From an uncultured Verrucomicrobiales bacterium (GTDB taxonomy: Bacteria > Verrucomicrobiota > Verrucomicrobiia > Limisphaerales > JAYPXF01): 60,022 nucleotides of DNA. Below, in pieces: positions 1,925-14,932 of this stretch. The stretch is from NCBI GenBank assembly GCA_937893495.1, contig CALBIE010000023.1, forward strand, positions 1-60,022. Direction: 5' to 3'. A program made the translations under genes and the position numbers. Under the pieces are notes generated by a model. The model saw only the letters and a list, made by a program, of their open reading frames with translations, was not told the origin of the DNA and did not search any database. Position 1 is the stretch's first letter; every line of letters starts with the position of its first letter.

Positions 1925-3109
1925 TTACAGTTCCAACACACCGCTGGCCGGAATTCCGCGGAGAACCTCCCGAAGACTGGCGACCCTGACCGAATCGGAC
2001 AATGGGTAGGAATCGCCATCTGGAACAACATAGCAGCCTGAGCCCGCCCGGACGGTTTTCATGCTTTCGGAGAACCCGGACGTCATCTTCGGTGACAAGG
2101 TCCGCTTGATTTCAATCGCGATGGTTTCGCCCCGGGGAGTTTCAACGACCAGATCAATCTCCGCGCCCGCGTGCGTCCGGTAATGGCTGCACGCGTGGCC
2201 CGTTGGGAGTCGGGTGATAATCTGTTCAATGCAATAGCCTTCCCAGGAATGGCCACAAAGCGGATGACCGAACACCTGTTCGAGGTCATGGAGTCCGGCA
2301 AGCGTGTGCAGCAGCCCCGTGTCGCGCCAGTATACCTTTGGGGCACGGACAAGGCGTTTGCCGGCGTTCCGGTTCCAGGCGGGAAGTGAGCGGAGGAGAT
2401 AAAGGCCTTCCAGGAGATCGATGTATCGTCGGGCGGTCTTTCCGTCGATGCCAAGTGAACCGGCAAGTTTGGCCAGATTGAGCGTGGCCCCCTGCTGGTG
2501 CGCGAGCATCGAACAAAAGCGACGCAGTTGAAGCGGCGCGGCGGCGACGCCCAACTGGGGAAGGTGCCGCTCCACGTGGCTGGTGATGAAATCCTCACGC
2601 CATTGCGTGGAAACCGTGTCGTCGGCCGCCAGAAAACTTTCAGGATATCCGCCGCGAAACCAGTGACGATCCCTCGTGGAGTCGTCCGATTCCAACTCGG
2701 CCAGGCTGAATGGGTGGAGTTCAAGGTAACTGATACGTCCGGCGAGGGTTTCCGAACTCTGTTGAAGCAGGTCGGGTGAAGCCGATCCGAGAATGAGGAA
2801 TTGAGCCGACTTCTCACCCGCGCGACGACGCTCATCCACCAGACTCCGCAGGACGGGAAACAATCCCGGCAGACGTTGAATTTCATCGAGGATGACCAGT
2901 TGATCCGGGAATCGGCTGAGATACAGCTCCGGGTCGGCAAGTTTGGCCGCATCTGATGGCCGTTCCAGATCGAGATAGTGGGTCGGCTTGTCCAGTTTGA
3001 GGCCCCGCGCCAAAGTGGTCTTTCCAACCTGGCGTGATCCCAGAAGCGCCACGACAGGGACTGCCGCCAACGTCTCTTTTACGGATGATTCAAGTTCGCG
3101 GCCAATCAC
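1925..3109 (-). CDS. AAA ATPase (AAA_14) with C-terminal DUF4143 domain
   Basis: 394 aa with a GTG start. P-loop is LLGSRQVGKTTL and Walker B is LVILDEIQ. The C-terminal GAEIDLVVE...IAIEIKRT resembles a D..ExK nuclease-fold motif typical of this family. Confidence 0.85.
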   Translation of the reverse strand: MIGRELESSVKETLAAVPVVALLGSRQVGKTTLARGLKLDKPTHYLDLERPSDAAKLADPELYLSRFPDQLVILDEIQRLPGLFPVLRSLVDERRRAGEKSAQFLILGSASPDLLQQSSETLAGRISYLELHPFSLAELESDDSTRDRHWFRGGYPESFLAADDTVSTQWREDFITSHVERHLPQLGVAAAPLQLRRFCSMLAHQQGATLNLAKLAGSLGIDGKTARRYIDLLEGLYLLRSLPAWNRNAGKRLVRAPKVYWRDTGLLHTLAGLHDLEQVFGHPLCGHSWEGYCIEQIITRLPTGHACSHYRTHAGAEIDLVVETPRGETIAIEIKRTLSPKMTSGFSESMKTVRAGSGCYVVPDGDSYPLSDSVRVASLREVLRGIPASGVLEL

Positions 3110-3207: not shown

Positions 3208-4992
3208 TTAGAGTTCCACGCGACTGCGCGTAGACCCCATCAGCTTGGGAATATCCCGGATATGGGCACGGTCCTTTTCCTTGTCCTCTTCCGACAGCTT
3301 ATCCCACGGGACAATGCACTTGTGAGTCATCTGTTTCTTGTCGGTCAGTTCGCCGTAGCTGAATCCCTGCAACACCTTGTCCGCCATCCAGCGGTCATGT
3401 TCCATCCGGGCCAGGGCCTCCATTTGTTCCTCCAGTTTTTCACCGGTCGGGATGCCGTCCTTGTCCCGGCCCGTATCGCAGCCGACGGTGAGACATTTTA
3501 TGATGATGTGCTCCGCAGCGGCACGATTGGCCTCCTTGAGATACTCCGGAAGTTTCTGCCACGATTCCCGGGCGGCGGGATCGGTCGGTGAACGATTGCC
3601 TTCCATGAAATGAATGTGAATCGCCTGGGCCAGTCCGTTTATTTTCGTGCGACAAATGGCCGGCAACGAGAACGTCTCCTGAAACAACCCGAATCCATTC
3701 AGGTTTCGCAGCGGGTCCTCTTTCTTGCGATTGTCCACGAGGAATTTGTTGATGCCGGCTGATTGGGTCAAGCGAACGAAAACCCGTATTTCGTCCTCAT
3801 CGGCGTGACGGATCATCTCGTTGATGTCGATGGCCAAATCGAGACTTTTGGCGTCGGTCTCGCGGCAGACGATATGCGTCAACAGCTCCCCATCGGTCGC
3901 CAGCAATTCCTGCACGGCCTGGCGGGCAACGCGACTGCCCGGGGCAGCGGGAATCACCTTCAGATCCAGCACCCGCGAACACCGGCTCAGCCGTTCGTCG
4001 GTAAACCCGTCCCCCTCGGATGCCGAATAATCATCAAGACAGGCATCAATCAGGGTGACACGGGTCTGAAGACCGTTGGCAAAATGGGCCAGTCGGGCCA
4101 GTTGAAAAAGAATGGCGCGCCCCACGGTTCCAAACCCGTGAATGACGACGTGCGCCCGTCGTTTTTCATCGGATGCGAGGGGCAGGCATCCTTCACTTTT
4201 ACGGGCCAAGGCCACCATCTTTTCCCACAGGTCGCGCGCGGCGGCCTGACTGATGTTGGACACACCAATCTGGAGATTTGCCCTCGGCTCCAGATACCCG
4301 GTATGAATCGGAATGAGATCGCTCAGTTTGAGATCACTGATGCTCAGGTAACAATCCAGCCGATCCAGCGCGCCATCCTCAGCCGCCTTGAGGCGTGCCT
4401 CCACGATGGCATGAACAATCTCCAGGTTGACGTTGTCATCTCGCGTGAAGACGAACGCTTCTTTTGCCTGAAGGATACCGGCCGCGAACAACGCGGAGGG
4501 GTCGGCGGCATTTCCCGTAATCAGGCTGATGCCTTGTTTCTTGCAGGCAGCCAGCACATCCGGTTCCGGATTGGAATCAATTGCCGCAACGGTTTGTCCG
4601 GCTTCGGACCGATCCAGGATCAGGAATCGGCCGCGCTGGCCCAGACCACAAACAACCGTGTGACCGTGCAATCTCCGGCGTCGCATCCGTTCGTGAAATC
4701 TCTCCAATAGAACCAGCGCTCCCTGAAGGACCGCATAGCCCGTCAAGGCCGGCGCCAGGAACCGCGCAATGTTTAATTCCAGGGGCAACAACTGTGAGTC
4801 CCCGACTCGTAACTCCATCAGGAACAGGCTCAGGGTATTGAAAATGGCGTCATCAATTTGGAGTGGGCCGCCGGGTGGCGGGAGCATGAGAAAACCAACC
4901 AGCCCCATGCTGAACGCGGCGACGGCAAGCGCGCCGAAAACGAAGGGGAGAAAACCCATCAACCGCCGCCAGATACGTCCATCAAAGCCCAT
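3208..4992 (-). CDS. Membrane protein: N-terminal TM helices, two Rossmann (TrkA-N/RCK-like) domains, C-terminal RyR domain
   Basis: 594 aa. N-terminal hydrophobic helices are present. Gly-rich Rossmann loops are VVCGLGQRG and IHGFGTVGR. The C-terminus EALARMEHDRWMADKVLQGFSYGELTDKKQMTHKCIVPWDKLSEEDKEKDR matches the RyR (PF02026-type) consensus. Confidence 0.8.
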   Translation of the reverse strand: MGFDGRIWRRLMGFLPFVFGALAVAAFSMGLVGFLMLPPPGGPLQIDDAIFNTLSLFLMELRVGDSQLLPLELNIARFLAPALTGYAVLQGALVLLERFHERMRRRRLHGHTVVCGLGQRGRFLILDRSEAGQTVAAIDSNPEPDVLAACKKQGISLITGNAADPSALFAAGILQAKEAFVFTRDDNVNLEIVHAIVEARLKAAEDGALDRLDCYLSISDLKLSDLIPIHTGYLEPRANLQIGVSNISQAAARDLWEKMVALARKSEGCLPLASDEKRRAHVVIHGFGTVGRAILFQLARLAHFANGLQTRVTLIDACLDDYSASEGDGFTDERLSRCSRVLDLKVIPAAPGSRVARQAVQELLATDGELLTHIVCRETDAKSLDLAIDINEMIRHADEDEIRVFVRLTQSAGINKFLVDNRKKEDPLRNLNGFGLFQETFSLPAICRTKINGLAQAIHIHFMEGNRSPTDPAARESWQKLPEYLKEANRAAAEHIIIKCLTVGCDTGRDKDGIPTGEKLEEQMEALARMEHDRWMADKVLQGFSYGELTDKKQMTHKCIVPWDKLSEEDKEKDRAHIRDIPKLMGSTRSRVEL

Positions 4993-5037
4993 GGTGGAGT
5001 CAACTAACAGAATTTGACGACAAAAGCCAATCTACGA

Positions 5038-7014
5038 TCACGAGGGAGAAACAATTGGCCGATCCAGGAAAACAACTCGCCAATCGAGTGATTCGTTCAC
5101 CAGCAACTCGGCGACATTTGTGGTCAGGGCGGTCACTTCACGGGAAGACGGTGCCTGACTGGTCTCCGCCGACGCCTCGGAAAATTTCTTCCTCAGCTCA
5201 ACGACTTCCTCAAGAATCTGTTTAAGCTGTCCAACCATGGCATGAGAGCGTTTGGCGATTCGTCGAAATTCGCCCTGATTGTTGATACCGGCAAGGGCCG
5301 CGCCCAGCGCCGGGAGGAAACCACAAAAGAAAGTCAGCAGCGAGGGGAGCCAGGGTGGGAACGACTTGTCAAATCCGAGTGATGGAAACAGCGGAAGCAC
5401 GTGAATTCCGCAGGAGATAAGCGTGAGTGCCAGAAGGGTCACGCCGAATGAATGCAATCGATGCTCGATGTTCTCGCATCGCCGTGCCGTTGACCCATGG
5501 TAATCAACCTGACGTTCCAGAAGTTCAGCCGATTGATCCAGTGATTCAACCAGTTGTTTCGAATCGAGTCGGGTGGACGGCAGACCAATATCACGCTCAA
5601 CCGCGCGAATATACGAGGCAACCCAGGTTGATTCCGGATGATCATACTCTTTCAAGTGCCCTGCCGTTGGGGGAAACGGGCGCTGACCTCCCAGCGGGGC
5701 GACCAGTCGCAAATGCCGCACAAATTCCGCGGCGATCCGGTAGTCGAGCCAGCGTTCATGCCAGCGCTTCCGTCGTCCGAAATGGACGAGTCCAAGAATG
5801 GTCAAGATGATGAATAACTCAGAGACAATGCAGACGCCCTCAATCCAGTGATGATGCCCCTGTTGGCCGATTCCAAAAGGTAACAAGGCCATGAATACCG
5901 CAGCAGCAGCCAGAAGAAAGGCGAGGACAAACGCGCTGCGATAGGTATCCGAGTAGATCACCGCGAGCTTGTCCGGCCACGCGTAAAACGGGCGCAAGCG
6001 GTTGACCACCTTTGCCGCGGGTGTGGATTCGTCGCGAGGCCACGCGTATTCCACGGATTCTTCAAAATCCGGGACTGACAACGGTGGGATTCCAACTCGG
6101 TTGTTCCCGACAAAATCGCGAAAACATTTCCAGACGATGGCCGGGTTAAAAAGTGGTTTTCGCTCCGAATAAAAGTCACGAATCGTGAGTAGCGACCGCG
6201 CGTTCTTGGGTGGCCCGCCTCGCCCCTCTTGTTCATCGATGTCGGAAAACCCAACGGTTCTTTGAATGAAATCCTTAATGTCCTGCGGATTCTGATCCGA
6301 AGACGGAGTCACACGGCCATTTTTCGATTCCGGCAGCAACCTGCCCCCACAAACGACTTGCCACGAATGAGGCGAATGGCCATCGATCCACACTGTGGGG
6401 ACGCCCCTGCGAACGGCTTCGTCCAGTGTTTCCTCCGTTCCGCCTCGTTTACCAAGACGCTCTCCGTCCCATACCACAATCAACAAGTCCGCCTGATTCA
6501 ATACTATATTCCCTGCCGCACCATAGGCGGCACCTGAATCATTCCGGCTACCATCCAACTCAAATTTTCTCAGGCTGGATTTCCTGCTCGCCGATTCAAG
6601 GAGACTGCGAAAGGAATTCAACGAATCCGGTTCCTCTGCCCGGTCGCCAATAAAATCCTTCTCGTATTCCTCCTGATGAAACGGCATCGGAACACAGAGT
6701 TCGTAATCGAGTTTGAGTGCCGCTTTGGCAAAAATTCGGTCAGTCCCTTCAGCGAGAGGAGAAACGGCCCGGAGCACGGGCTTCGAATCATCGAATAAAT
6801 CACTTTGCTTGTCGCCGAGTCTCACGACTTCCTGGTGAATTGCATTCAGCATGCTGGCGATTACCTCCTCAAGCCTGGTCGTGTCACCTGGCAGCCGGTT
6901 CGGGCGATGACCGACGACCCCGACCCGGAATACCAGCCGTGGCTTGGGCGGTCGTCGTGTTTTGGAGTATTCCGCTTCCATTTGTCCTCGGTGAATAAAG
7001 CCTGATCGGAGCAT
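5038..7014 (-). CDS. SLOG (YpsA/DprA-like Rossmannoid) domain fused to SLATT/DUF4231-type 2TM modules (4 TM helices)
   Basis: The N-terminus has VGVVGHRPNRL and PLAEGTDRIFAKAAL (GHRP and GxDxxA SLOG-type motifs). TM pairs lie at about aa 362-414 and 524-578. The first pair is followed by RWHERWLDYRIAAEFVRHL, which is DUF4231-like. The track start at 7020 is TTG; ATGs occur at 7014 and 6981. Confidence 0.7.
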   Translation of the reverse strand: MLRSGFIHRGQMEAEYSKTRRPPKPRLVFRVGVVGHRPNRLPGDTTRLEEVIASMLNAIHQEVVRLGDKQSDLFDDSKPVLRAVSPLAEGTDRIFAKAALKLDYELCVPMPFHQEEYEKDFIGDRAEEPDSLNSFRSLLESASRKSSLRKFELDGSRNDSGAAYGAAGNIVLNQADLLIVVWDGERLGKRGGTEETLDEAVRRGVPTVWIDGHSPHSWQVVCGGRLLPESKNGRVTPSSDQNPQDIKDFIQRTVGFSDIDEQEGRGGPPKNARSLLTIRDFYSERKPLFNPAIVWKCFRDFVGNNRVGIPPLSVPDFEESVEYAWPRDESTPAAKVVNRLRPFYAWPDKLAVIYSDTYRSAFVLAFLLAAAAVFMALLPFGIGQQGHHHWIEGVCIVSELFIILTILGLVHFGRRKRWHERWLDYRIAAEFVRHLRLVAPLGGQRPFPPTAGHLKEYDHPESTWVASYIRAVERDIGLPSTRLDSKQLVESLDQSAELLERQVDYHGSTARRCENIEHRLHSFGVTLLALTLISCGIHVLPLFPSLGFDKSFPPWLPSLLTFFCGFLPALGAALAGINNQGEFRRIAKRSHAMVGQLKQILEEVVELRKKFSEASAETSQAPSSREVTALTTNVAELLVNESLDWRVVFLDRPIVSPS

Positions 7015-7163
7015 GACCAAACTGGAAATGGGTAACCAGCAAATTCAGTCAGAGATCAACGCAAGCGACATCCCTTGCCGGTTTGACACGAGTGGAGAGC
7101 TTGTGGGACGGTCACCCGACCAAGTAGCGAGTGGGATCTGTTCAACCGGTCATTTCATCAAAT

Positions 7164-8579
7164 ATGCTGATACGAGTAACCTGCGAATGTGGACAAAGTT
7201 TTCACATCGATGATGTTCACAAAGGGAGCCAGTTCGAATGCTCCGAATGTGGCGAAAACCTGACGGCGGACGGCGAGTTGATATCCAGCCACGATGTCTT
7301 TATCAGTCACTCGACCAAGAATAAAACCATCGCCGACGCGGTTTGCGCGACACTGGAAGCTCACGGAATCCGTTGCTGGATGGCGCCGAGAGACATCAAA
7401 CCCGGCGCTGATTGGGGGGAATCAATTCTCGATGGAATCGAGAACTGTCGCCTGTTTCTTCTGGTATTTTCCTCGCACGCCAACGACTCGCGGCATGTGA
7501 TGCGCGAAGTTGAAAGAGCGGTTAACAAAGGACTGTACATCATTCCTTTCCGCATTGATGATGTCACGCCTTCCAAATCGATGGAGTACTTTCTGAGTTC
7601 CCAGCATTGGCTGGATGCGATGACGTCTCCCCTGGAAAAACATCTTGAGGAGTTGGCCGGGATCATCGCCAATCTGCTGGAGGGAAACCAAGGCTCGGCG
7701 AAGGGCCCATCCGCGGAAAATACTAAAGTCGCATCACAGCCAAAACGCACCAAAAGCAAATCGAAAACCATTCTGGCGGCCGTATCCCTTTTCATCGTGG
7801 TGCTGGCTGCGGCTCTGGTAATTCCAAAGTTTTTTAAACCTGCTGAAAAAAGTCCTCCGGGAAACTCATCGACACCGGTGCCGAAAAAAAGCGCATCTGA
7901 AACAAAGATACTCGAAGCCCTCGACAAGCCGTTCAAGACTTATTTCATTGATACGCCCCTCAGCGATGTTGCGTCCTGGATTGCAGATGCATTCAAGGTC
8001 AACGTGGTTATCGACAGGGCATCACTGATGTCAGAAGGATACGATATTGATGAGCCGATTACCATCGATCAGAAAGAGATTTCCCTCCGGTCCGCTCTAA
8101 ACCTGATGTTGGACGCCGTTGGCGGGGGCTTGGATGGCGGGTTGAGTTTTGTCGTGCGGGATGAGGTTCTCTTGATTACGACCAAAAACTACCGTGATTC
8201 CGTGGGTGCCGAATACCTGGCGCCCAAGCCTGACAAGATTGAAGGACCGGTCCCGCAAAAGCTGATCGATTCGCTGAACAAGGCGCATTCTGAGGAGTTG
8301 GTGGATTATCCCCTCGAAGAACTCCTGAACATGTATCAAGCCAAATACGGATTGGCCTATTCAGTCGATCCAAACTCCTTGGTGGCAATATTGAACATGG
8401 GCGCCAATCCAATGGATCCGGTGACCCTGAAGGTCGACAACATTTCTCTCCGATCCATCCTTCGTTTGCTTCTCCTTCAAGTTGAAGCCCGATACGAAAT
8501 TCGCAATGAAGTCGTCTATATCATGGACTGGGAGGAACCGGCGACCGACAAGAACGCGGTTATGAAAAAGGCGAAATAG
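7164..8579 (+). CDS. Zn-ribbon + TIR domain + single TM + two STN/secretin-N-like repeats
   Basis: The N-terminus carries CECG...CSECG. The TIR_2 pattern is DVFISHSTKN..GIRCWMAPRDIKPGADWGESI..LFLLVFSSHANDSRHVMREVERAV. The TM helix is ILAAVSLFIVVLAAALVIP. The C-terminus has two repeats of a ...ISLRS(A/I)L.L.L...V..EV..I motif. ATG at 7164; the track start at 7131 is GTG. Confidence 0.85.
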   Translation: MLIRVTCECGQSFHIDDVHKGSQFECSECGENLTADGELISSHDVFISHSTKNKTIADAVCATLEAHGIRCWMAPRDIKPGADWGESILDGIENCRLFLLVFSSHANDSRHVMREVERAVNKGLYIIPFRIDDVTPSKSMEYFLSSQHWLDAMTSPLEKHLEELAGIIANLLEGNQGSAKGPSAENTKVASQPKRTKSKSKTILAAVSLFIVVLAAALVIPKFFKPAEKSPPGNSSTPVPKKSASETKILEALDKPFKTYFIDTPLSDVASWIADAFKVNVVIDRASLMSEGYDIDEPITIDQKEISLRSALNLMLDAVGGGLDGGLSFVVRDEVLLITTKNYRDSVGAEYLAPKPDKIEGPVPQKLIDSLNKAHSEELVDYPLEELLNMYQAKYGLAYSVDPNSLVAILNMGANPMDPVTLKVDNISLRSILRLLLLQVEARYEIRNEVVYIMDWEEPATDKNAVMKKAK

Positions 8580-8611
8580 TTCGGACAGGGAATTTTTTCG
8601 CACGGATTACC

Positions 8612-9400
8612 ATGACTGAACACGACGTTTTCATCAGCCATTCGTCGAACGATACCGAAACGACGGACAAAGTCAGACAAACTCTGGAAGCCCGCGGTAT
8701 CACCTGCTGGATTGCGCCGCGCGACATCGAGGCAGGCGCGGACTGGGGCGAGGCCATTGTCAGCGGCATCGAACGAAGTCGATTGTTTCTTCTGATCTTT
8801 TCCGAGCGGGCGAATCAATCGCAACACGTGATGAGGGAGGTCGAGCGAGCGGTGAATCGGGGACTCTACATCATCCCCTTTCGGATCGATGCGGTCGTGC
8901 CATCGAGGTCAATGGAGGATTTTGTTGTGAAGAATGAAGTAATCTTGATCACAAGGAAATCCACCAAGGAGGCACTGGGAACAGACTTCATTCCTTCCCC
9001 CGAAGACAAAATCATTGGAAAGCGGCCGGTGGCGTTGATGGAGACACTGGATCACATTGTTTCCGTGGATTACGAGAATGCCCAGTTTCCCGCTGTCCTC
9101 GCCGACCTCCGTTCGAGTTACAATCTGATCAGTTCGATTGACAAGAATTCCGGAGTCGCCCTGGAAAAACCGGAAGACCTGTTGGTTACCTTGAGGGTGA
9201 ACGAGTTGCCACTCCGGTCAGTCCTGCGTCTGCTCTGCGATCAGGTCGAAGCCCGGTATGAGATTAGAAACGGCGAGGTCTTTGTTTTCGACGCACGGCA
9301 CCTGGAATCGACCGCTTTACGAAGGATGAAACTGAAGGAGGCCGCATATTCGAAACAGATGAAATTATTGGAAGAATTGACAAAAAAGAGGAAGAAATAG
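8612..9400 (+). CDS. TIR-domain protein, truncated paralog of the preceding gene (no TM, one STN-like repeat)
   Basis: MTEHDVFISHSSND...GITCWIAPRDIEAGADWGEAI...HVMREVERAVNRGLYIIPFRID is collinear with the upstream protein. After SRSMEDF it jumps straight to VVKNEVILITRK, matching VVRDEVLLITTK of the paralog. Confidence 0.85.
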   Translation: MTEHDVFISHSSNDTETTDKVRQTLEARGITCWIAPRDIEAGADWGEAIVSGIERSRLFLLIFSERANQSQHVMREVERAVNRGLYIIPFRIDAVVPSRSMEDFVVKNEVILITRKSTKEALGTDFIPSPEDKIIGKRPVALMETLDHIVSVDYENAQFPAVLADLRSSYNLISSIDKNSGVALEKPEDLLVTLRVNELPLRSVLRLLCDQVEARYEIRNGEVFVFDARHLESTALRRMKLKEAAYSKQMKLLEELTKKRKK

Positions 9401-10528: not shown

Positions 10529-12259
10529 TCAGATCAAGGTGAACGCCGCGTCGAGATAAGCCTGCATATACGTCGGCACTCGCGCCTTCTTACTCTTGCT
10601 CTTCGGTTTCTGAACCGGTTTCGGCATCGGACGTTTCGCGGTCTCGACAATTCCATTGGAAAACTCGAGGACATGGCCCTGATGAATCAGCCAGTGCAGA
10701 TCCGCATTGACTGCCCTTTGCACCGGGGTCATCTCCGGTTCGCTGCGGGCTGGAGGTGCCGGACTTGCGGCGGCGGGTTCAGCATTCGTATCAGTTTCTG
10801 ATGCAGACTGCGCTTCGCCGGTCTTTTCCGTTGGTTCGGTGGGCTCAGCCGTGGCTTCCGGCGCAGGAACTGGCGCGGTAAGTTCTATCTTCGGGGCCGG
10901 CGCGAACTGGTCAAATATCTGTCGGCGGGTGCAGCGCTTCGTTGCGTCAATAAACTCGATGATGCTGCGAATGCTGTCCGACACCGGCGTGGCTTCCATG
11001 TCGAGAAAGTGCGGACGCGATACGGAAACGTGCGTTACACTTTTGTCTTTCTTGAAAAACTGAAGACCATGTTTCGCAAATTCATCGCACAGCGCGGTCA
11101 CTATCTTAATCGGAAAGCGGCGTTGATCCTCGAAGGCTCGTTGAAACAAGCGGCGCAGCGTCGGGTCTGGAACTGCCTGGGCGTCTTTTCCGGAGATGTT
11201 TCGCGAATCCACGCTGACGACGATATTGGGCATGTGGACGTCGCGAAAGTGCTTCTCGACCTCATCACGACTGCCAAGCTTCAACGTCTCCGGGACGTTC
11301 AGCACGGTGTATTCGATCTTGAAACTCTGATTCTCGATCCATTTCTGCACCACCTCCTCGTCACGTACGATCTTGACGCGTGATTTGTAAACATCGAACG
11401 GCATGTTCTTGAATCGCTCACTGTGCAACAGGACGAGGTTTTTCTGGTAATCGTGATAGTTGGGTGGCCCGAGTATCGTGCCGCTCATACCGCACTGGGC
11501 AACAAAGGTGTAGGTGCCCTTGGGCGGATCGACAGGCGTCTTGTCAGTCTGGTAAAACGCGGCGAAATGTTTGCGTAACAGGTGCCGCCTCGCATCTTCC
11601 TGCGACAGCCAGAGGGTGTCGTCGAATTCGCACAGGAATAATGGCTGTTGAACCTTGTCTTGTCTCCTCACCACGCTAAAGCGAGCACGAAATCGGTCGC
11701 CCGACTTGAGCACTAAATGCGCAATGTCAAAAACCGGATAGGAACGGCCGGTCAATTTGATTTGCCTCGAAATGGCCGCAATGCCGTCGGAATCCGGAAG
11801 GATGGCGGTGTCCACGTCCGGCAATGGCGCCGGTTCGTCCCGCCGATCACGTGGACCATCAAAGCGATCACGCGGCCCACGATCGCGACCCGGCCCGCGC
11901 CCGTCTCTGTTAAAGGGCCGGTTCCCCTGGCGGTTATCGCCGCGTTGCCCCGGACCCGAATCCCGCCGCGCTCCTGGTCCCGGTCTCGGGCCATCGCGAC
12001 GCGGGCCATCGCGACGTGGTCCGCCCCGATCACCTCGCGGGCGCGATTCCTCGTCACCCCGATACTTATCGAATTTTTTTTCATCCGGCGACTGCTTCGC
12101 CCAGGCGGGCAGAAGTTCCAGTTCCAGATCCAGTTCCACTTTATTCAACGTACTCATCAACTCGGTCTCCGGGCTGCAATTCCGGCTTACCTCAAAAGAG
12201 TTGCGAGAATGGAACCTCGCCGAAGGGAATGCAAGTGCGCCTTTGGCCCTGATCGACAT
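10529..12259 (-). CDS. Hypothetical protein with Arg/Gly/Asp/Pro-rich low-complexity N-terminal region
   Basis: Long ORF with coding-like composition. It contains RPRGDRGGPRRDGPRRDGPRPGPGARRD...GRGPGRDRGPRDRFDGPRDRRD. An alternative ATG at 12157 gives MSTLNKVELD. I recognise no family. Confidence 0.6.
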   Translation of the reverse strand: MSIRAKGALAFPSARFHSRNSFEVSRNCSPETELMSTLNKVELDLELELLPAWAKQSPDEKKFDKYRGDEESRPRGDRGGPRRDGPRRDGPRPGPGARRDSGPGQRGDNRQGNRPFNRDGRGPGRDRGPRDRFDGPRDRRDEPAPLPDVDTAILPDSDGIAAISRQIKLTGRSYPVFDIAHLVLKSGDRFRARFSVVRRQDKVQQPLFLCEFDDTLWLSQEDARRHLLRKHFAAFYQTDKTPVDPPKGTYTFVAQCGMSGTILGPPNYHDYQKNLVLLHSERFKNMPFDVYKSRVKIVRDEEVVQKWIENQSFKIEYTVLNVPETLKLGSRDEVEKHFRDVHMPNIVVSVDSRNISGKDAQAVPDPTLRRLFQRAFEDQRRFPIKIVTALCDEFAKHGLQFFKKDKSVTHVSVSRPHFLDMEATPVSDSIRSIIEFIDATKRCTRRQIFDQFAPAPKIELTAPVPAPEATAEPTEPTEKTGEAQSASETDTNAEPAAASPAPPARSEPEMTPVQRAVNADLHWLIHQGHVLEFSNGIVETAKRPMPKPVQKPKSKSKKARVPTYMQAYLDAAFTLI

Positions 12260-12407
12260 GCGAAACCAGCGACTTCAACTTTTGATCTCTTCAACAATCT
12301 GATTTCGAGTCGATCATATCCCGAGGACACCAGTAAGTTTTCGGTTTTGGTACTTGCCTTGGACCGCCGTGCTGTCTTGGATTTGGTCAGGCACTTTATC
12401 CGGGCGG

Positions 12408-13868
12408 ATGCAGGACTATCCAAAACATTATTGCGGAGTATTTGGCGTTTACGGTCACCCAAATGCAGCCGAGTTGACCTACTATGGTCTGTACGCGCTG
12501 CAACATCGCGGACAGGAGAGCGCCGGCATCGTCACGTGCGATGGAACGGAGTTCCGCGCCCACCGTGGCATGGGGCTCGTGCCGCAGGTGTTCAAGGGAG
12601 ATGTTATCCGTGATCTCGTCGGGCATATGGCGATTGGCCACACCCGCTATTCGACGACTGGCAGTTCGCACATGCGCAACGCCCAGCCGTTGACAGTTGA
12701 CTGTTCTCGCGGCCAGATTGCGATCGCCCACAACGGTAACCTGACCAACGCCGCCGCCCTGCGCGAGGAACTTGAGGCTCAAGGCTCCATTTTTCAAACT
12801 TCGGTTGACAGCGAAATCATCCTCCACCTGCTCGCTCAACCGTCGACGAGTGCCACCAGCAGTACCCTCGTGCAGGCGATGCACAAGATTGAGGGTGCCT
12901 ATTCGCTCGTCATCATGACCGAAAACGAACTCATCGGCGCGCGCGACCCGTACGGGTTCCGGCCGTTGTGCATCGGGAAACTGGGCGACGGCTGGGTTCT
13001 GGCCAGCGAAACGACCGCGTTGGACCTGATTCAGGCCAAGTTCGTGCGCGAAGTCGAGCCAGGTGAAATTGTCATTCTGGATCAGGACGGCATCAAGAGT
13101 GTTCAGACGCACAAGGGTTTTAAGGAGCGCGCCTTCTGTATTTTCGAGTACGTCTATTTTGCGCGGCCGGACAGCATCATCATGGACCGCAGCGTGTATC
13201 GAACGCGGGTGGAAATGGGCCGCGAACTGGCCCGGGAAAGTCCGATTGACGCTGACATCGTAGTGCCGGTGCCCGACAGCGGCAATTGCGCGGCCCTCGG
13301 GTTCTCGCTTGAATCAGGCATCCCGTATGAAATGGCCTACGTGCGGAACCATTATGTCGGGCGCAGTTTTCTCCAACCGTCCCAGTTGATTCGCGACTTC
13401 AACGTGCGCGTGAAGCTCAACCTCATTAACGAACTGGTTGAGGGTAAACGGGTTGTCATCGTGGACGACTCAATCGTCCGGGGCACCACCTGCAAAACGC
13501 GCGTCAACAACCTCAAGGAAGCCGGCGCGAAAGAAGTGCATGTGCGCGTCAGTTGTCCACCGCATCGAAACCCCTGCTTCTATGGAATTGACTTTCCGGA
13601 TCGCAGTAAGTTGATGGCGGTCAGTCACTCGATGGAAGAGATCCTGAAATATCTCGATGCCGATTCCCTGGCCTATCTCTCCCAGGATGGCATGGTAAAG
13701 GCGACCGGATTGCCCGCGAGCGCGTTCTGTATGGCGTGTTACGACGGGAATTATCCGGTCGGATACGATCCCGCCGTGCACAAACACATCATGGAGAAGC
13801 GCCGCGAGCGTGTCGAAAGCCTCGGGCAGACCCTCAAGAAGCACGACGAGCAACCCAGACTGCTCTGA
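12408..13868 (+). CDS. purF: Amidophosphoribosyltransferase
   Basis: CGVFGVYGH...YGLYALQHRGQESAGIV is the Ntn glutaminase N-terminus. The PRTase motif is VVIVDDSIVRGTT. ATG at 12408 places the Cys a few residues from the start. Confidence 0.95.
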   Translation: MQDYPKHYCGVFGVYGHPNAAELTYYGLYALQHRGQESAGIVTCDGTEFRAHRGMGLVPQVFKGDVIRDLVGHMAIGHTRYSTTGSSHMRNAQPLTVDCSRGQIAIAHNGNLTNAAALREELEAQGSIFQTSVDSEIILHLLAQPSTSATSSTLVQAMHKIEGAYSLVIMTENELIGARDPYGFRPLCIGKLGDGWVLASETTALDLIQAKFVREVEPGEIVILDQDGIKSVQTHKGFKERAFCIFEYVYFARPDSIIMDRSVYRTRVEMGRELARESPIDADIVVPVPDSGNCAALGFSLESGIPYEMAYVRNHYVGRSFLQPSQLIRDFNVRVKLNLINELVEGKRVVIVDDSIVRGTTCKTRVNNLKEAGAKEVHVRVSCPPHRNPCFYGIDFPDRSKLMAVSHSMEEILKYLDADSLAYLSQDGMVKATGLPASAFCMACYDGNYPVGYDPAVHKHIMEKRRERVESLGQTLKKHDEQPRLL

Positions 13869-13876
13869 CTTTGGTG

Positions 13877-14932
13877 ATGAAAAAATCTGCATACGCTCAA
13901 GCGGGCGTCGATCTCGTTCTCGGAAACCGGGTCAAGGAAACACTCCCCGCATTGCTGGCCTCAACCAAACGGGCCGAGGTGCTCGGCAAGGTTGGCGGAT
14001 TCGGCGGTTTGTTTGCCCTAAACACGCGCAAATTCAAACAGCCCGTGCTCGTGTCCAGCGTGGATGGCGTGGGCACAAAACTGAAAGTCGCGTTCGAATG
14101 CAATCGGCATGACACGATCGGGCAGGACCTGGTCAATCACTGTGTCAATGACATCGCGGTGTTGGGCGCCGAGCCGTTGTTCTTCCTCGATTACCTCGGC
14201 ACCGGCAAACTCAAGGCGAACGTGTTCGAGGAAATCGTCCGCGGTTTTGCCATCGGCTGCCGTGCCAATGGCTGTTCGCTTATCGGTGGCGAAACAGCCC
14301 AGATGCCCGGCTTTTACCAGAAAGGCGAATACGATGTCAGTGGAACCATCGTTGGCGTAGTGGACAAATCGCGGATGCTCAACGGGCAGAAGACGATCAA
14401 GCGCGGAGATGTTATCATCGGGATGGCGTCCAACGGCTTGCACACCAACGGCTACTCGCTCGCGCGCCGGATATTTTTCGACCAACTGAAGCTCAAGCCT
14501 CGCACGAAGCTCAAGGAATTGGGCTGCACTGTCGGGGAAGAATTGCTCAAGGTTCACGTCAGCTACTGGCCTGTGGTTCGTAGCCTGATTGGCAGATTCA
14601 ATCCACCCCGCAATCCGGGTGCATTGAAGGCGTTGGCGCACATCACGGGCGGCGGATTCATCGACAACATTCCCCGCGTGCTGCCGAAGAATTGTGACGC
14701 CGTGATTCATCGCGGCATGTGGGACATGCCATCCGTTTTCAACCTGATGCAGGCTGCCGGCAAGGTTGATGAAACGGAGATGTATCAGGTCTTCAATATG
14801 GGAATCGGAATGATCGCCGTGGTGTCGGCGGGAGAGGCGGCCGCCATGCTCCGCGGCATTCGCGCCCGCAGGATCAAGGCTTGGCAGATCGGCGAAATCG
14901 CCAGAGGAACCGGCAAGACGGTTCTCGACTGA
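13877..14932 (+). CDS. purM: Phosphoribosylformylglycinamidine cyclo-ligase (AIR synthetase)
   Basis: MKKSAYAQAGVDLVLGN...GGFGGLF...VSSVDGVGTKLKVA...GQDLVNHCVNDI is the canonical PurM pattern. ATG at 13877 lies just after the purF stop. Confidence 0.95.
   Translation: MKKSAYAQAGVDLVLGNRVKETLPALLASTKRAEVLGKVGGFGGLFALNTRKFKQPVLVSSVDGVGTKLKVAFECNRHDTIGQDLVNHCVNDIAVLGAEPLFFLDYLGTGKLKANVFEEIVRGFAIGCRANGCSLIGGETAQMPGFYQKGEYDVSGTIVGVVDKSRMLNGQKTIKRGDVIIGMASNGLHTNGYSLARRIFFDQLKLKPRTKLKELGCTVGEELLKVHVSYWPVVRSLIGRFNPPRNPGALKALAHITGGGFIDNIPRVLPKNCDAVIHRGMWDMPSVFNLMQAAGKVDETEMYQVFNMGIGMIAVVSAGEAAAMLRGIRARRIKAWQIGEIARGTGKTVLD

Follow-up and report, generated by a model that had tools for sequence, protein, structure and literature searches.

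TIR genes linked to a SLOG-4TM protein and a channel-like RyR/RCK protein in a Verrucomicrobiales locus: a candidate Thoeris-like signalling system

Do two TIR genes that stand beside the genes of a SLOG-bearing and a RyR-bearing membrane protein belong with them to one signalling system? The question is raised by positions 3208-9400 of a 60,022-nucleotide (nt) stretch of contig CALBIE010000023.1 (GCA_937893495.1; uncultured Verrucomicrobiales bacterium), which as a whole is called the window here. An earlier note on this DNA had likened the arrangement to type I Thoeris, and that interpretation is supported by the co-occurrence of these gene families and by the catalytic glutamate (Glu) of their TIR domains. 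Across many phyla, TIR genes lie next to homologues of both membrane proteins: the SLOG protein with four transmembrane (TM) helices, called SLOG-4TM, and the protein with two TM helices (2TM), tandem RCK domains and a C-terminal RyR domain, called RyR/RCK. We regard a Thoeris-like TIR nucleotide signalling system with two membrane effectors as slightly better than an even bet. The four genes, all of them real as open reading frames (ORFs) with their domains according to ORF calls, Pfam and fold models, are arranged as follows.

3208-4992, minus strand: RyR/RCK gene, 594 amino acids (aa), from the ORF call
5038-7020, minus strand: SLOG-4TM gene, 660 aa; gene callers start at ATG 6981, giving 647 aa
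7021-7130, no strand: divergent intergenic region from the ORF coordinates, 6982-7163 with the ATG starts
7131-8579, plus strand: gene for the longer TIR protein (TIR_long), 482 aa; ATG 7164, the likely start, gives 471 aa
8612-9400, plus strand: gene for the shorter TIR protein (TIR_short), 262 aa, from the ORF call

The tandem TIR genes that the earlier note had placed beside a SLOG/RyR operon are borne out by these ORF calls together with Pfam matches to TIR_2, RyR and TrkA_N. The SLOG-4TM gene and the first TIR gene are divergent and 110-182 bp apart depending on start codons, in line with the previous estimate of about 150 bp, and both promoters presumably lie inside this gap. The RyR/RCK gene follows the SLOG-4TM gene on the same strand, with 45 bp between them by the ORF coordinates. 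A GC contrast of 47-48% in the TIR genes against about 60% in the SLOG-4TM gene, from which separate acquisition had been proposed, did not hold. The TIR genes have 50.5% and 51.8% GC, the SLOG-4TM gene 54.6%, the RyR gene 57.4% and the window 56.5%; the gap is therefore only 3-4 points, not 12, and gives little support for separate acquisition.

Evidence for a functional connection comes from other genomes. At least 420 SLOG-4TM homologues were found, and 80 SLOG-4TM loci from many phyla were compared using one-genome-per-species data. A TIR ORF was counted as near within 2.5 kb of the SLOG-4TM gene and as distal beyond 5 kb, and flanks were called full when at least 3 kb was available on each side. 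On this basis 34 of the 80 loci had a near TIR ORF, as did 22 of the 46 with full flanks. TIR density was approximately tenfold enriched, with 10 per 100 kb near the gene versus 1 per 100 kb distally (35 versus 5 genes; binomial p = 4e-9). The TIR-linked loci belong to Planctomycetota, Acidobacteriota, Caulobacteraceae, Gemmatimonadota, Dadabacteria, Methylococcales, Bacteroidota and others. Some 30 loci have the TIR gene as the immediate neighbour of the SLOG-4TM gene, often co-directional with a gap of 13-61 bp and sometimes divergent; the divergent layout of the window is seen again in L010, L026 and L091/L092. The TIR domains in these loci are 50-62% identical to those of the window, even where the SLOG-4TM protein falls to about 33%. 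What follows the TIR domain C-terminally is variable and includes a TM helix with DUF4189, PDZ, PD40/WD40, and a STAND NTPase with TPR. From the TIR side, a SLOG-4TM gene adjoins two of four sampled TIR homologues.

RyR-domain proteins recur in the same loci. One directly adjoins the SLOG-4TM gene in 8/80 loci, several of which also have a TIR gene. TIR, SLOG-4TM and RyR occur together in unrelated phyla (L016, L048, L072, L079 and L081), and the trio is present in at least five phyla; in L072 (Methylococcales) the order on one strand is SLOG-4TM, TIR-PDZ, RyR/RCK. In two loci the adjoining RyR domain is fused to an AAA/STAND NTPase and not to RCK (L016:6693-9707, 1005 aa; L068:6993-9776, 928 aa), which suggests a portable, modular sensor domain.

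The linkage was also found when the question was turned around. When metagenomes were scanned reciprocally with a RyR/RCK alignment of closer sequences, a homologue could be called in 71 loci. Of these, 22 have a TIR gene no more than 2.5 kb away, as do 10 of the 19 whose flanks are full; 23 TIR genes stand near and none beyond 4 kb (p = 3e-6). The TIR gene is usually directly upstream of the RyR/RCK gene on the same strand, with a gap of 0-30 bp or an overlap. The nearest RyR/RCK homologue with context, in L081, follows TIR, SLOG and 4TM genes in that order, all co-directional. In several related loci the genes are co-directional, so the window's divergent arrangement is one variant among others. 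The co-occurrence that the earlier note had proposed to count is thus present around both SLOG-4TM and RyR/RCK, and the linkage of TIR genes with the two families is not due to chance.

Several RyR/RCK neighbourhoods contain further genes of related type. SLOG-only genes adjoin RyR/RCK in L081, L084, L093, L095 and L131. In L093 the neighbours of the RyR/RCK homologue are genes for a small SLOG protein of DprA-like type, a TIR-STAND-TPR protein and cpYpsA, and in L095 a 189-aa LSDAT_prok gene (PF18171; L095:1568-2137) overlaps the homologue's stop codon. LSDAT_prok is a prokaryotic relative of the SLOG domain of TRPM channels. NUDIX hydrolase genes, which encode ADP-ribose (ADPR) hydrolases, are present in 7 neighbourhoods (109 neighbour proteins scanned, L096-L175). 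L083 has two RyR/RCK paralogues with a TIR gene and without SLOG-4TM. Tandem RyR/RCK paralogues were observed in L083, L106, L126, L133, L135, L144 and L150. Separately, at L081:2740-4936 SLOG (289 aa) and 4TM (459 aa) are encoded by two overlapping ORFs and not as one fusion, which reflects either a truly divided architecture or a frameshift.

Signal production would fall to the TIR proteins, whose features are listed here.

7296-7643, plus strand: TIR domain of TIR_long (aa 56-171; Pfam TIR_2)
7506-7508, plus strand: catalytic Glu of TIR_long, E126, aligned with AbTir
7767-7823, plus strand: single TM helix of TIR_long (aa 213-231; TM prediction)
about 7878-8576, plus strand: two predicted periplasmic FecR_C/STN-like repeats of TIR_long (FecR_C 2e-4)
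8627-8902, plus strand: truncated TIR domain of TIR_short (aa 6-97; Pfam TIR_2)
8837-8839, plus strand: catalytic Glu of TIR_short, E76, from the paralogue alignment

TIR_long matches Pfam TIR_2 at 2.3e-24, and TIR_short at 1.1e-21 over model positions 1-98 of 122. An N-terminal CxC...CxxC zinc ribbon, the TIR domain, the TM helix and two C-terminal repeats follow one another in TIR_long. The TM helix and periplasm-like repeats described in the earlier note are thus found, the similarity of the repeats to FecR_C and STN being sub-threshold (the FecR_C match of 2e-4 is below the Pfam cutoff). The glutamate singled out there as the catalytic candidate is E126, and it aligns, like E76 of the paralogue, with the catalytic Glu of AbTir. 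This residue is kept in 57/58 partner TIRs, namely 35/35 from the SLOG-4TM loci and 22/23 from the RyR/RCK loci; the sole partner without it is a 75-aa fragment. ThsB models match the window TIRs weakly.

TIR_short lacks the zinc ribbon and the TM helix and has one FecR_C/STN-like repeat. It is 68% identical to TIR_long over 105 aa of the TIR domain and 41% identical in the last repeat, and an internal deletion of 186 aa has taken away the last part of the TIR domain together with the TM helix and the greater part of repeat 1. As judged from this alignment, it is an old paralogue of TIR_long. The TIR domain of TIR_long is 45-67% identical to those of hundreds of TIR-TM-periplasmic-domain proteins, most of which are uncharacterised. 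The clade is very large, with 893 matches at E<=1e-5 among 8000 candidates scored (homologues P0131-P0249). The extracytoplasmic domains that follow the TM helix include DUF4189, FGE-sulfatase, OmpA, YARHG, CsgG, BON, PDZ, DUF1080, LRR and EF-hand.

The RyR/RCK protein has the following parts.

aa 17-35 and aa 78-96 of the RyR/RCK protein: TM1 and TM2, with a short pore-helix-like segment between them (TM prediction and AlphaFold2 (AF2))
4399-4656, minus strand: first RCK/KTN Rossmann domain, TrkA_N (aa 113-198; Pfam 4e-13)
aa ~279-440 of the RyR/RCK protein, minus strand: second RCK/KTN Rossmann domain
3238-3444, minus strand: C-terminal RyR domain (aa 517-585; Pfam RyR)
3397-3399 and 3271-3273, minus strand: RyR-domain residues H532 and D574, respectively, with W535 and H557 in the same domain

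The match to Pfam RyR (PF02026) is well above the gathering cutoff (3e-15; 56.6 bits versus 27.4), and the segment matches all four repeats of animal RyR1-3 (E 3e-21). The AF2 model has a predicted local distance difference test (pLDDT) score of 82; in it a short helix lies between the two TM helices, and two Rossmann RCK domains and a helical RyR domain follow. Foldseek matched it to the TrkA gating ring, full-length GsuK (solved with NAD and ADP), MthK, Slo1 and a repeat of human RyR3, all at probability 1.0; in a viral structure library it matched a phage K+ channel and many phage RyR-domain proteins. The protein is therefore modelled as a GsuK/MthK-like 2TM and tandem-RCK channel-like protein with a C-terminal RyR domain. 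A word-index search had returned only 9 relatives, whereas an exhaustive hidden Markov model search places the family at 4,920 clusters (50% identity) at E<=1e-30, the top 150 of which match end to end.

The earlier hunch that the RyR domain is linked to nucleotide signals has been strengthened by two 2026 preprints, according to which RyR (PF02026) domains bind or cleave TIR-made isomers of cyclic ADP-ribose (cADPR). Phage RyR-domain proteins either hydrolyse 2'/3'cADPR, as RyDEP does with catalytic H75 and D117 together with W78 and H100, or bind at nanomolar affinity (PMC13232231, May 2026). Phage RyR Tad binds 3'cADPR (dissociation constant 43 nM), 2'cADPR and cADPR via H129/W132, H154 and K170/D171 (10.64898/2026.06.04.730250, June 2026). 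Between them, the two studies report that 3'cADPR, 2'cADPR and cADPR are either bound by phage RyR proteins, with affinities from nM to uM, or hydrolysed, through the residues just named (PMC13232231; 10.64898/2026.06.04.730250). In the window protein H532, W535, H557 and K573-D574 have a spacing (+3, +25, +42) identical to that of H75/W78/H100/D117 in RyDEP and H129/W132/H154/D171 in RyR Tad, a match established from residue spacing and an alignment with RyR repeats rather than from aligning the phage proteins directly. The H-W-H-D set is complete in the window protein and in 22/24 TIR-adjacent RyR/RCK homologues versus 25/45 others, the same counts holding for its last two positions, His and Asp, which lay outside the search pattern used to collect the homologues. 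The E-H-x-R-W core is invariant among RyR/RCK homologues, which is partly an ascertainment effect.

SLOG and SLATT domains were reportedly defined by Burroughs et al. in 2015. Both kinds are assigned in the SLOG-4TM protein.

about 6346-6948, minus strand: SLOG (Smf/DprA-LOG) domain, cytoplasmic (aa ~25-225; AF2 and Foldseek)
5707-6006, minus strand: first SLATT 2TM unit (aa 339-438)
5065-5562, minus strand: second 2TM helical unit (aa ~487-652)
aa 364-382, 396-414, 527-545 and 561-579 of the SLOG-4TM protein: TM helices (TM prediction)

The AF2 model (pLDDT 86.9; predicted template modelling score 0.86) has an N-terminal alpha/beta domain that Foldseek matched to ShosA (8zva) and DprA (5mll and 3uqz) at probability 1.0, and PLAEGxD and GGT motifs are invariant among the homologues. 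Modelled fold and motifs together confirm the domain as a member of the SLOG superfamily at that level only. SLATT-type 2TM modules are likewise confirmed by profile similarity: DUF4231 (SLATT clan) is found in 34/34 aligned homologues, with a best value of 1e-6, SLATT_1 in 8/34, and the 660-aa protein itself matches NCBIfam SLATT_1 at 7.8e-6, its own SLATT/DUF4231 scores lying below curated cutoffs. There is no SIR2 domain, as the earlier note had stated, and the predicted output is a 4TM SLATT-type module. ABC-transporter helical bundles, which dominated the Foldseek matches of the full-length model, were discounted as low-TM-score artefacts of long helices.

In the system that we favour, TIR_long, anchored in the membrane with a cytoplasmic TIR domain and periplasmic FecR_C/STN-like repeats, would respond to a cue, either phage attack or a disturbed envelope, perhaps acting with TIR_short, its truncated paralogue. 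Through the conserved catalytic Glu, the TIR domain would convert NAD+ to a cyclic-ADPR-type signal, which would be read by the two proteins of the divergent operon. Once the cytoplasmic SLOG domain of SLOG-4TM had bound the signal, the two SLATT-type hairpins of this protein would breach or permeabilise the membrane. RyR/RCK would bind it via the C-terminal RyR domain, and ion flux would change; with one RyR repeat per chain, the domain would have to dimerise. NAD+ or ADP might also be sensed at the Rossmann sites of the RCK domains, in the manner of GsuK. The outcome would be membrane depolarisation and growth arrest or death, as in abortive infection. An anti-phage or conflict role seems rather likely to us, and physiological signalling has a substantial chance, somewhat short of even.

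A number of observations weigh against this scheme. The TIR genes of the window run divergently from the effector operon and are not co-transcribed with it, and the flanks hold purF, purM and other housekeeping genes instead of a defence island. About half of the SLOG-4TM genes have no nearby TIR gene and stand amid housekeeping genes (IMPDH, NAD synthase). At these TIR-less loci there was no other signal generator and no alternative conserved partner, the neighbours being assorted housekeeping genes. The closest full-length TIR_long orthologue (P0131, 46% identity) has no SLOG-4TM gene within 8 kb. TIR_short, which lacks the last TIR helix, may be inactive. The fusion of a SLOG domain to a membrane effector, as read by the earlier note, stands by fold, motif and SLATT profiles, but lacks a SLOG profile match: searches of Pfam, NCBIfam and PADLOC gave none for the 660-aa protein, nor for its N-terminal domain alone at E<=1, and a profile of 34 homologues against PDB sequences returned only coiled-coil noise. 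The SLOG assignment thus derives from the AF2 model, Foldseek and the motifs only. For RyR/RCK, the TM region of the model reaches only pLDDT 55-77. Its TM helices are separated by the segment ELRVGDSQ, which has no TVGYG selectivity filter or GYG and is variable across homologues; the protein should accordingly not be filed as a K+ channel. The RyR domain also keeps the full catalytic dyad of the RyDEP glycosidase, and so could degrade a signal rather than sense it. Finally, two tested '4TM SLOG' systems did not protect Escherichia coli (10.64898/2025.12.03.692087).

A further-reaching reading, which we put forward tentatively, makes 2TM-RCK-RCK-RyR a bacterial ion channel on whose RyR domain a cyclic-ADPR-type messenger made by the TIR acts directly as the gating ligand. 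A second receptor of this pathway would be found in SLOG proteins, the TRPM-type LSDAT among them, and in TIR lineages with periplasmic sensors the module would serve as a transmembrane second-messenger system, instead of or besides phage defence.

The same wiring might have a non-immune use, which we think rather unlikely. A periplasmic cue acting on the FecR_C/STN-like repeats (in relatives DUF4189, PDZ, OmpA or BON) would, through the TIR messenger, reversibly gate RyR/RCK and SLOG-4TM and so adjust ion balance or envelope physiology. Such a role would suit the very large TIR-TM-extracytoplasmic-domain family to which the TIR clade amounts, the housekeeping surroundings of the window locus and of about half of the SLOG-4TM loci, the size of the RyR/RCK family and its resemblance to the ligand-gated physiological channels GsuK and MthK, and the absence of phage defence by the tested '4TM SLOG' systems. 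It sits poorly with the STAND NTPase, TPR and WD40 sensors of other TIR partners, which are typical of conflict systems, and with SLATT modules being known cell-killing effectors (10.64898/2025.12.03.692087). The phage RyR sponges and glycosidases directed against TIR signals point to an immune context as well, and a gene of the PADLOC candidate family PDC-S01 adjoins the locus.

It is improbable, in our view, that the RyR domain, and possibly SLOG, forms a host module that degrades or buffers the signal, as a RyDEP-like glycosidase or LOG-like enzyme that sets a threshold or resets the TIR signal, with the effector being only one of the membrane proteins or encoded elsewhere. In its favour, the RyDEP dyad (H532, D574) and the binding residues are kept in the window protein, ADPR-degrading NUDIX hydrolases are encoded repeatedly next to RyR/RCK genes, the LOG and DprA enzymes have the SLOG fold, and small stand-alone SLOG genes accompany RyR/RCK genes. 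However, of the phage RyR proteins tested that have these conserved residues, 6/8 bind the signals without cleaving them (PMC13232231), an enzyme has no evident need for a 2TM and tandem-RCK scaffold or a STAND NTPase fusion, and SLOG acts as a receptor in type I Thoeris. An adjacency without functional meaning, in which TIRs that act on their own, depleting NAD+ or serving as scaffolds, had come to lie beside a membrane operon unrelated to them, would accommodate the divergent orientation, a GC content of the TIR genes 3-6 points below their neighbours, the lone closest TIR_long orthologue and the many orphan SLOG-4TM genes, but is very improbable given the reciprocal, highly significant enrichment in two independent locus sets, the trio in at least five phyla, often co-directional and overlapping, and the recurring divergent TIR/SLOG-4TM layout.

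One further gene was considered as a fourth component of the favoured Thoeris-like system.

1925-3109, minus strand: AAA_14/DUF4143 ATPase gene, on the strand of the RyR gene and 98 bp downstream of it (Pfam)

Its product matches the PADLOC phage-defence-candidate family PDC-S01 (1e-91). No homologue was found near any of the 80 SLOG-4TM loci, and the gene was rejected as a component, being conserved in no related locus; it is probably a mere neighbour, outside the system. Positions 1-1900 of the window, at the locus edge, hold several overlapping ORFs of 60-190 aa on both strands that have no Pfam match and include no convincing gene, and may be decayed or non-coding sequence. On the other side, a 576-aa ORF (10529-12259, minus strand) has an Arg/Gly/Asp/Pro-rich low-complexity N-terminal region with repeated 'GPRRDGPRRDG' motifs, and local GC rises to 61-62% at 11.5-12.25 kb. 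The purF-like (12354-13868, plus strand) and purM-like (13736-14932, plus strand) ORFs overlap by about 130 nt as listed; the upstream GTG start of the latter is probably over-extended.

The action of cADPR on ryanodine receptors, and its binding site, have been argued over for decades, and we know of no proof that cADPR binds animal RyR directly. Recurrence of these gene linkages in many phyla suggests a bacterial counterpart of the animal idea that cyclic ADP-ribose acts on RyR channels; if this is true, RyR/RCK would be a prokaryotic forerunner of the animal cADPR-ryanodine-receptor channel axis. Phage RyR proteins bind cADPR isomers through residues common to animal RyR repeats (2026 preprints PMC13232231; 10.64898/2026.06.04.730250). 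The present locus and its relatives would supply the missing host side, with RyR on a channel-like scaffold coupled to TIR genes and often accompanied by a SLOG protein. Phage RyR sponges may then be captured host receptor domains, which may explain their presence in phages. If confirmed, the system would represent a new effector class for TIR/Thoeris signalling and a small, tractable bacterial model of ligand gating via the RyR domain, and would support a prokaryotic origin of the TIR, cADPR and RyR/TRPM-SLOG channel toolkit.

How does the locus compare with what is known? A December 2025 survey of TIR systems expanded Thoeris to eleven validated types (10.64898/2025.12.03.692087), and unless stated otherwise the Thoeris systems below are described from it. 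Its Tables S1/S2 list '4TM SLOG', or 'SLOG and 4TM', as an unverified putative Thoeris effector. In both cases a TIR gene adjoins a SLOG protein with four TM helices, and by this likeness of architecture and adjacency the TIR and SLOG-4TM pair of the window is a member of an already catalogued, unverified class. In the portion available, the TIRs of that class are only 19-31% identical to those found here, and no RyR/RCK partner is listed for it. In the accessible text and supplements of the survey the terms 'RyR' and 'TrkA' were not found, nor were the clade motifs APRDI, MREVE, IPFRI and GADWGE in the accessible part of its TIR table. The two preprints on phage RyR proteins do not discuss host RyR-domain proteins linked to TIRs (PMC13232231; 10.64898/2026.06.04.730250), and the literature searched contained no description of a TIR-RyR/RCK pairing or of a three-way TIR-SLOG-RyR linkage. 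The TIR-RyR/RCK partnership and the TIR-SLOG-RyR linkage would amount to a new form of TIR signalling, its putative effector recalling the link between cADPR and RyR channels in animals.

Type I Thoeris combines the TIR protein ThsB, sometimes in several copies, with ThsA, a SIR2-SLOG protein whose SLOG domain is the receptor of the signal 3'cADPR (10.64898/2025.12.03.692087). The window resembles it in pairing a predicted TIR signal generator, sometimes multi-copy, with a putative effector that has a SLOG sensor. Unlike type I, its predicted output is a 4TM SLATT-type membrane domain and not a SIR2 NADase, and TIR_long is predicted to be membrane-anchored with periplasmic repeats. Type VII pairs a TIR with the SLATT effector ThsH, uses canonical cADPR and is predicted to breach the membrane (10.64898/2025.12.03.692087). 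It shares with the window a SLATT-family membrane effector beside a TIR, whereas the SLATT units of the window are fused to SLOG and duplicated. Type X consists of a TIR and an unspecified 'ion channel', and type III of multiple TIRs and SLOG (10.64898/2025.12.03.692087). The TIRs of types VII and X have no detectable similarity to those found here.

The RyR domain of the window shares PF02026 and the His-x-x-Trp, His(+25) and Asp(+42) positions with RyDEP and RyR Tad. In contrast to these small soluble phage proteins, which destroy or sequester the signal, it is host-encoded, carried on a 2TM and tandem-RCK protein and linked to TIR genes. That scaffold resembles GsuK, MthK and TrkA-type proteins in its 2TM and tandem-RCK (KTN Rossmann) organisation (Foldseek probability 1.0), and GsuK is regulated by NAD+ and ADP. 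RyR/RCK differs from GsuK and MthK in having no TVGYG filter, in its extra C-terminal RyR domain and in being operonic with SLOG and TIR genes. As for the animal channels, pore and overall architecture are unrelated to those of RyR and TRPM2. The RyR repeat of the window nevertheless matches R12 and R34 of RyR1-3 (E 3e-21), a TRPM-type SLOG gene (LSDAT_prok) adjoins the RyR/RCK homologue in L095, and the theme shared with animal RyR and TRPM2 is an ADPR-type ligand acting on a channel.

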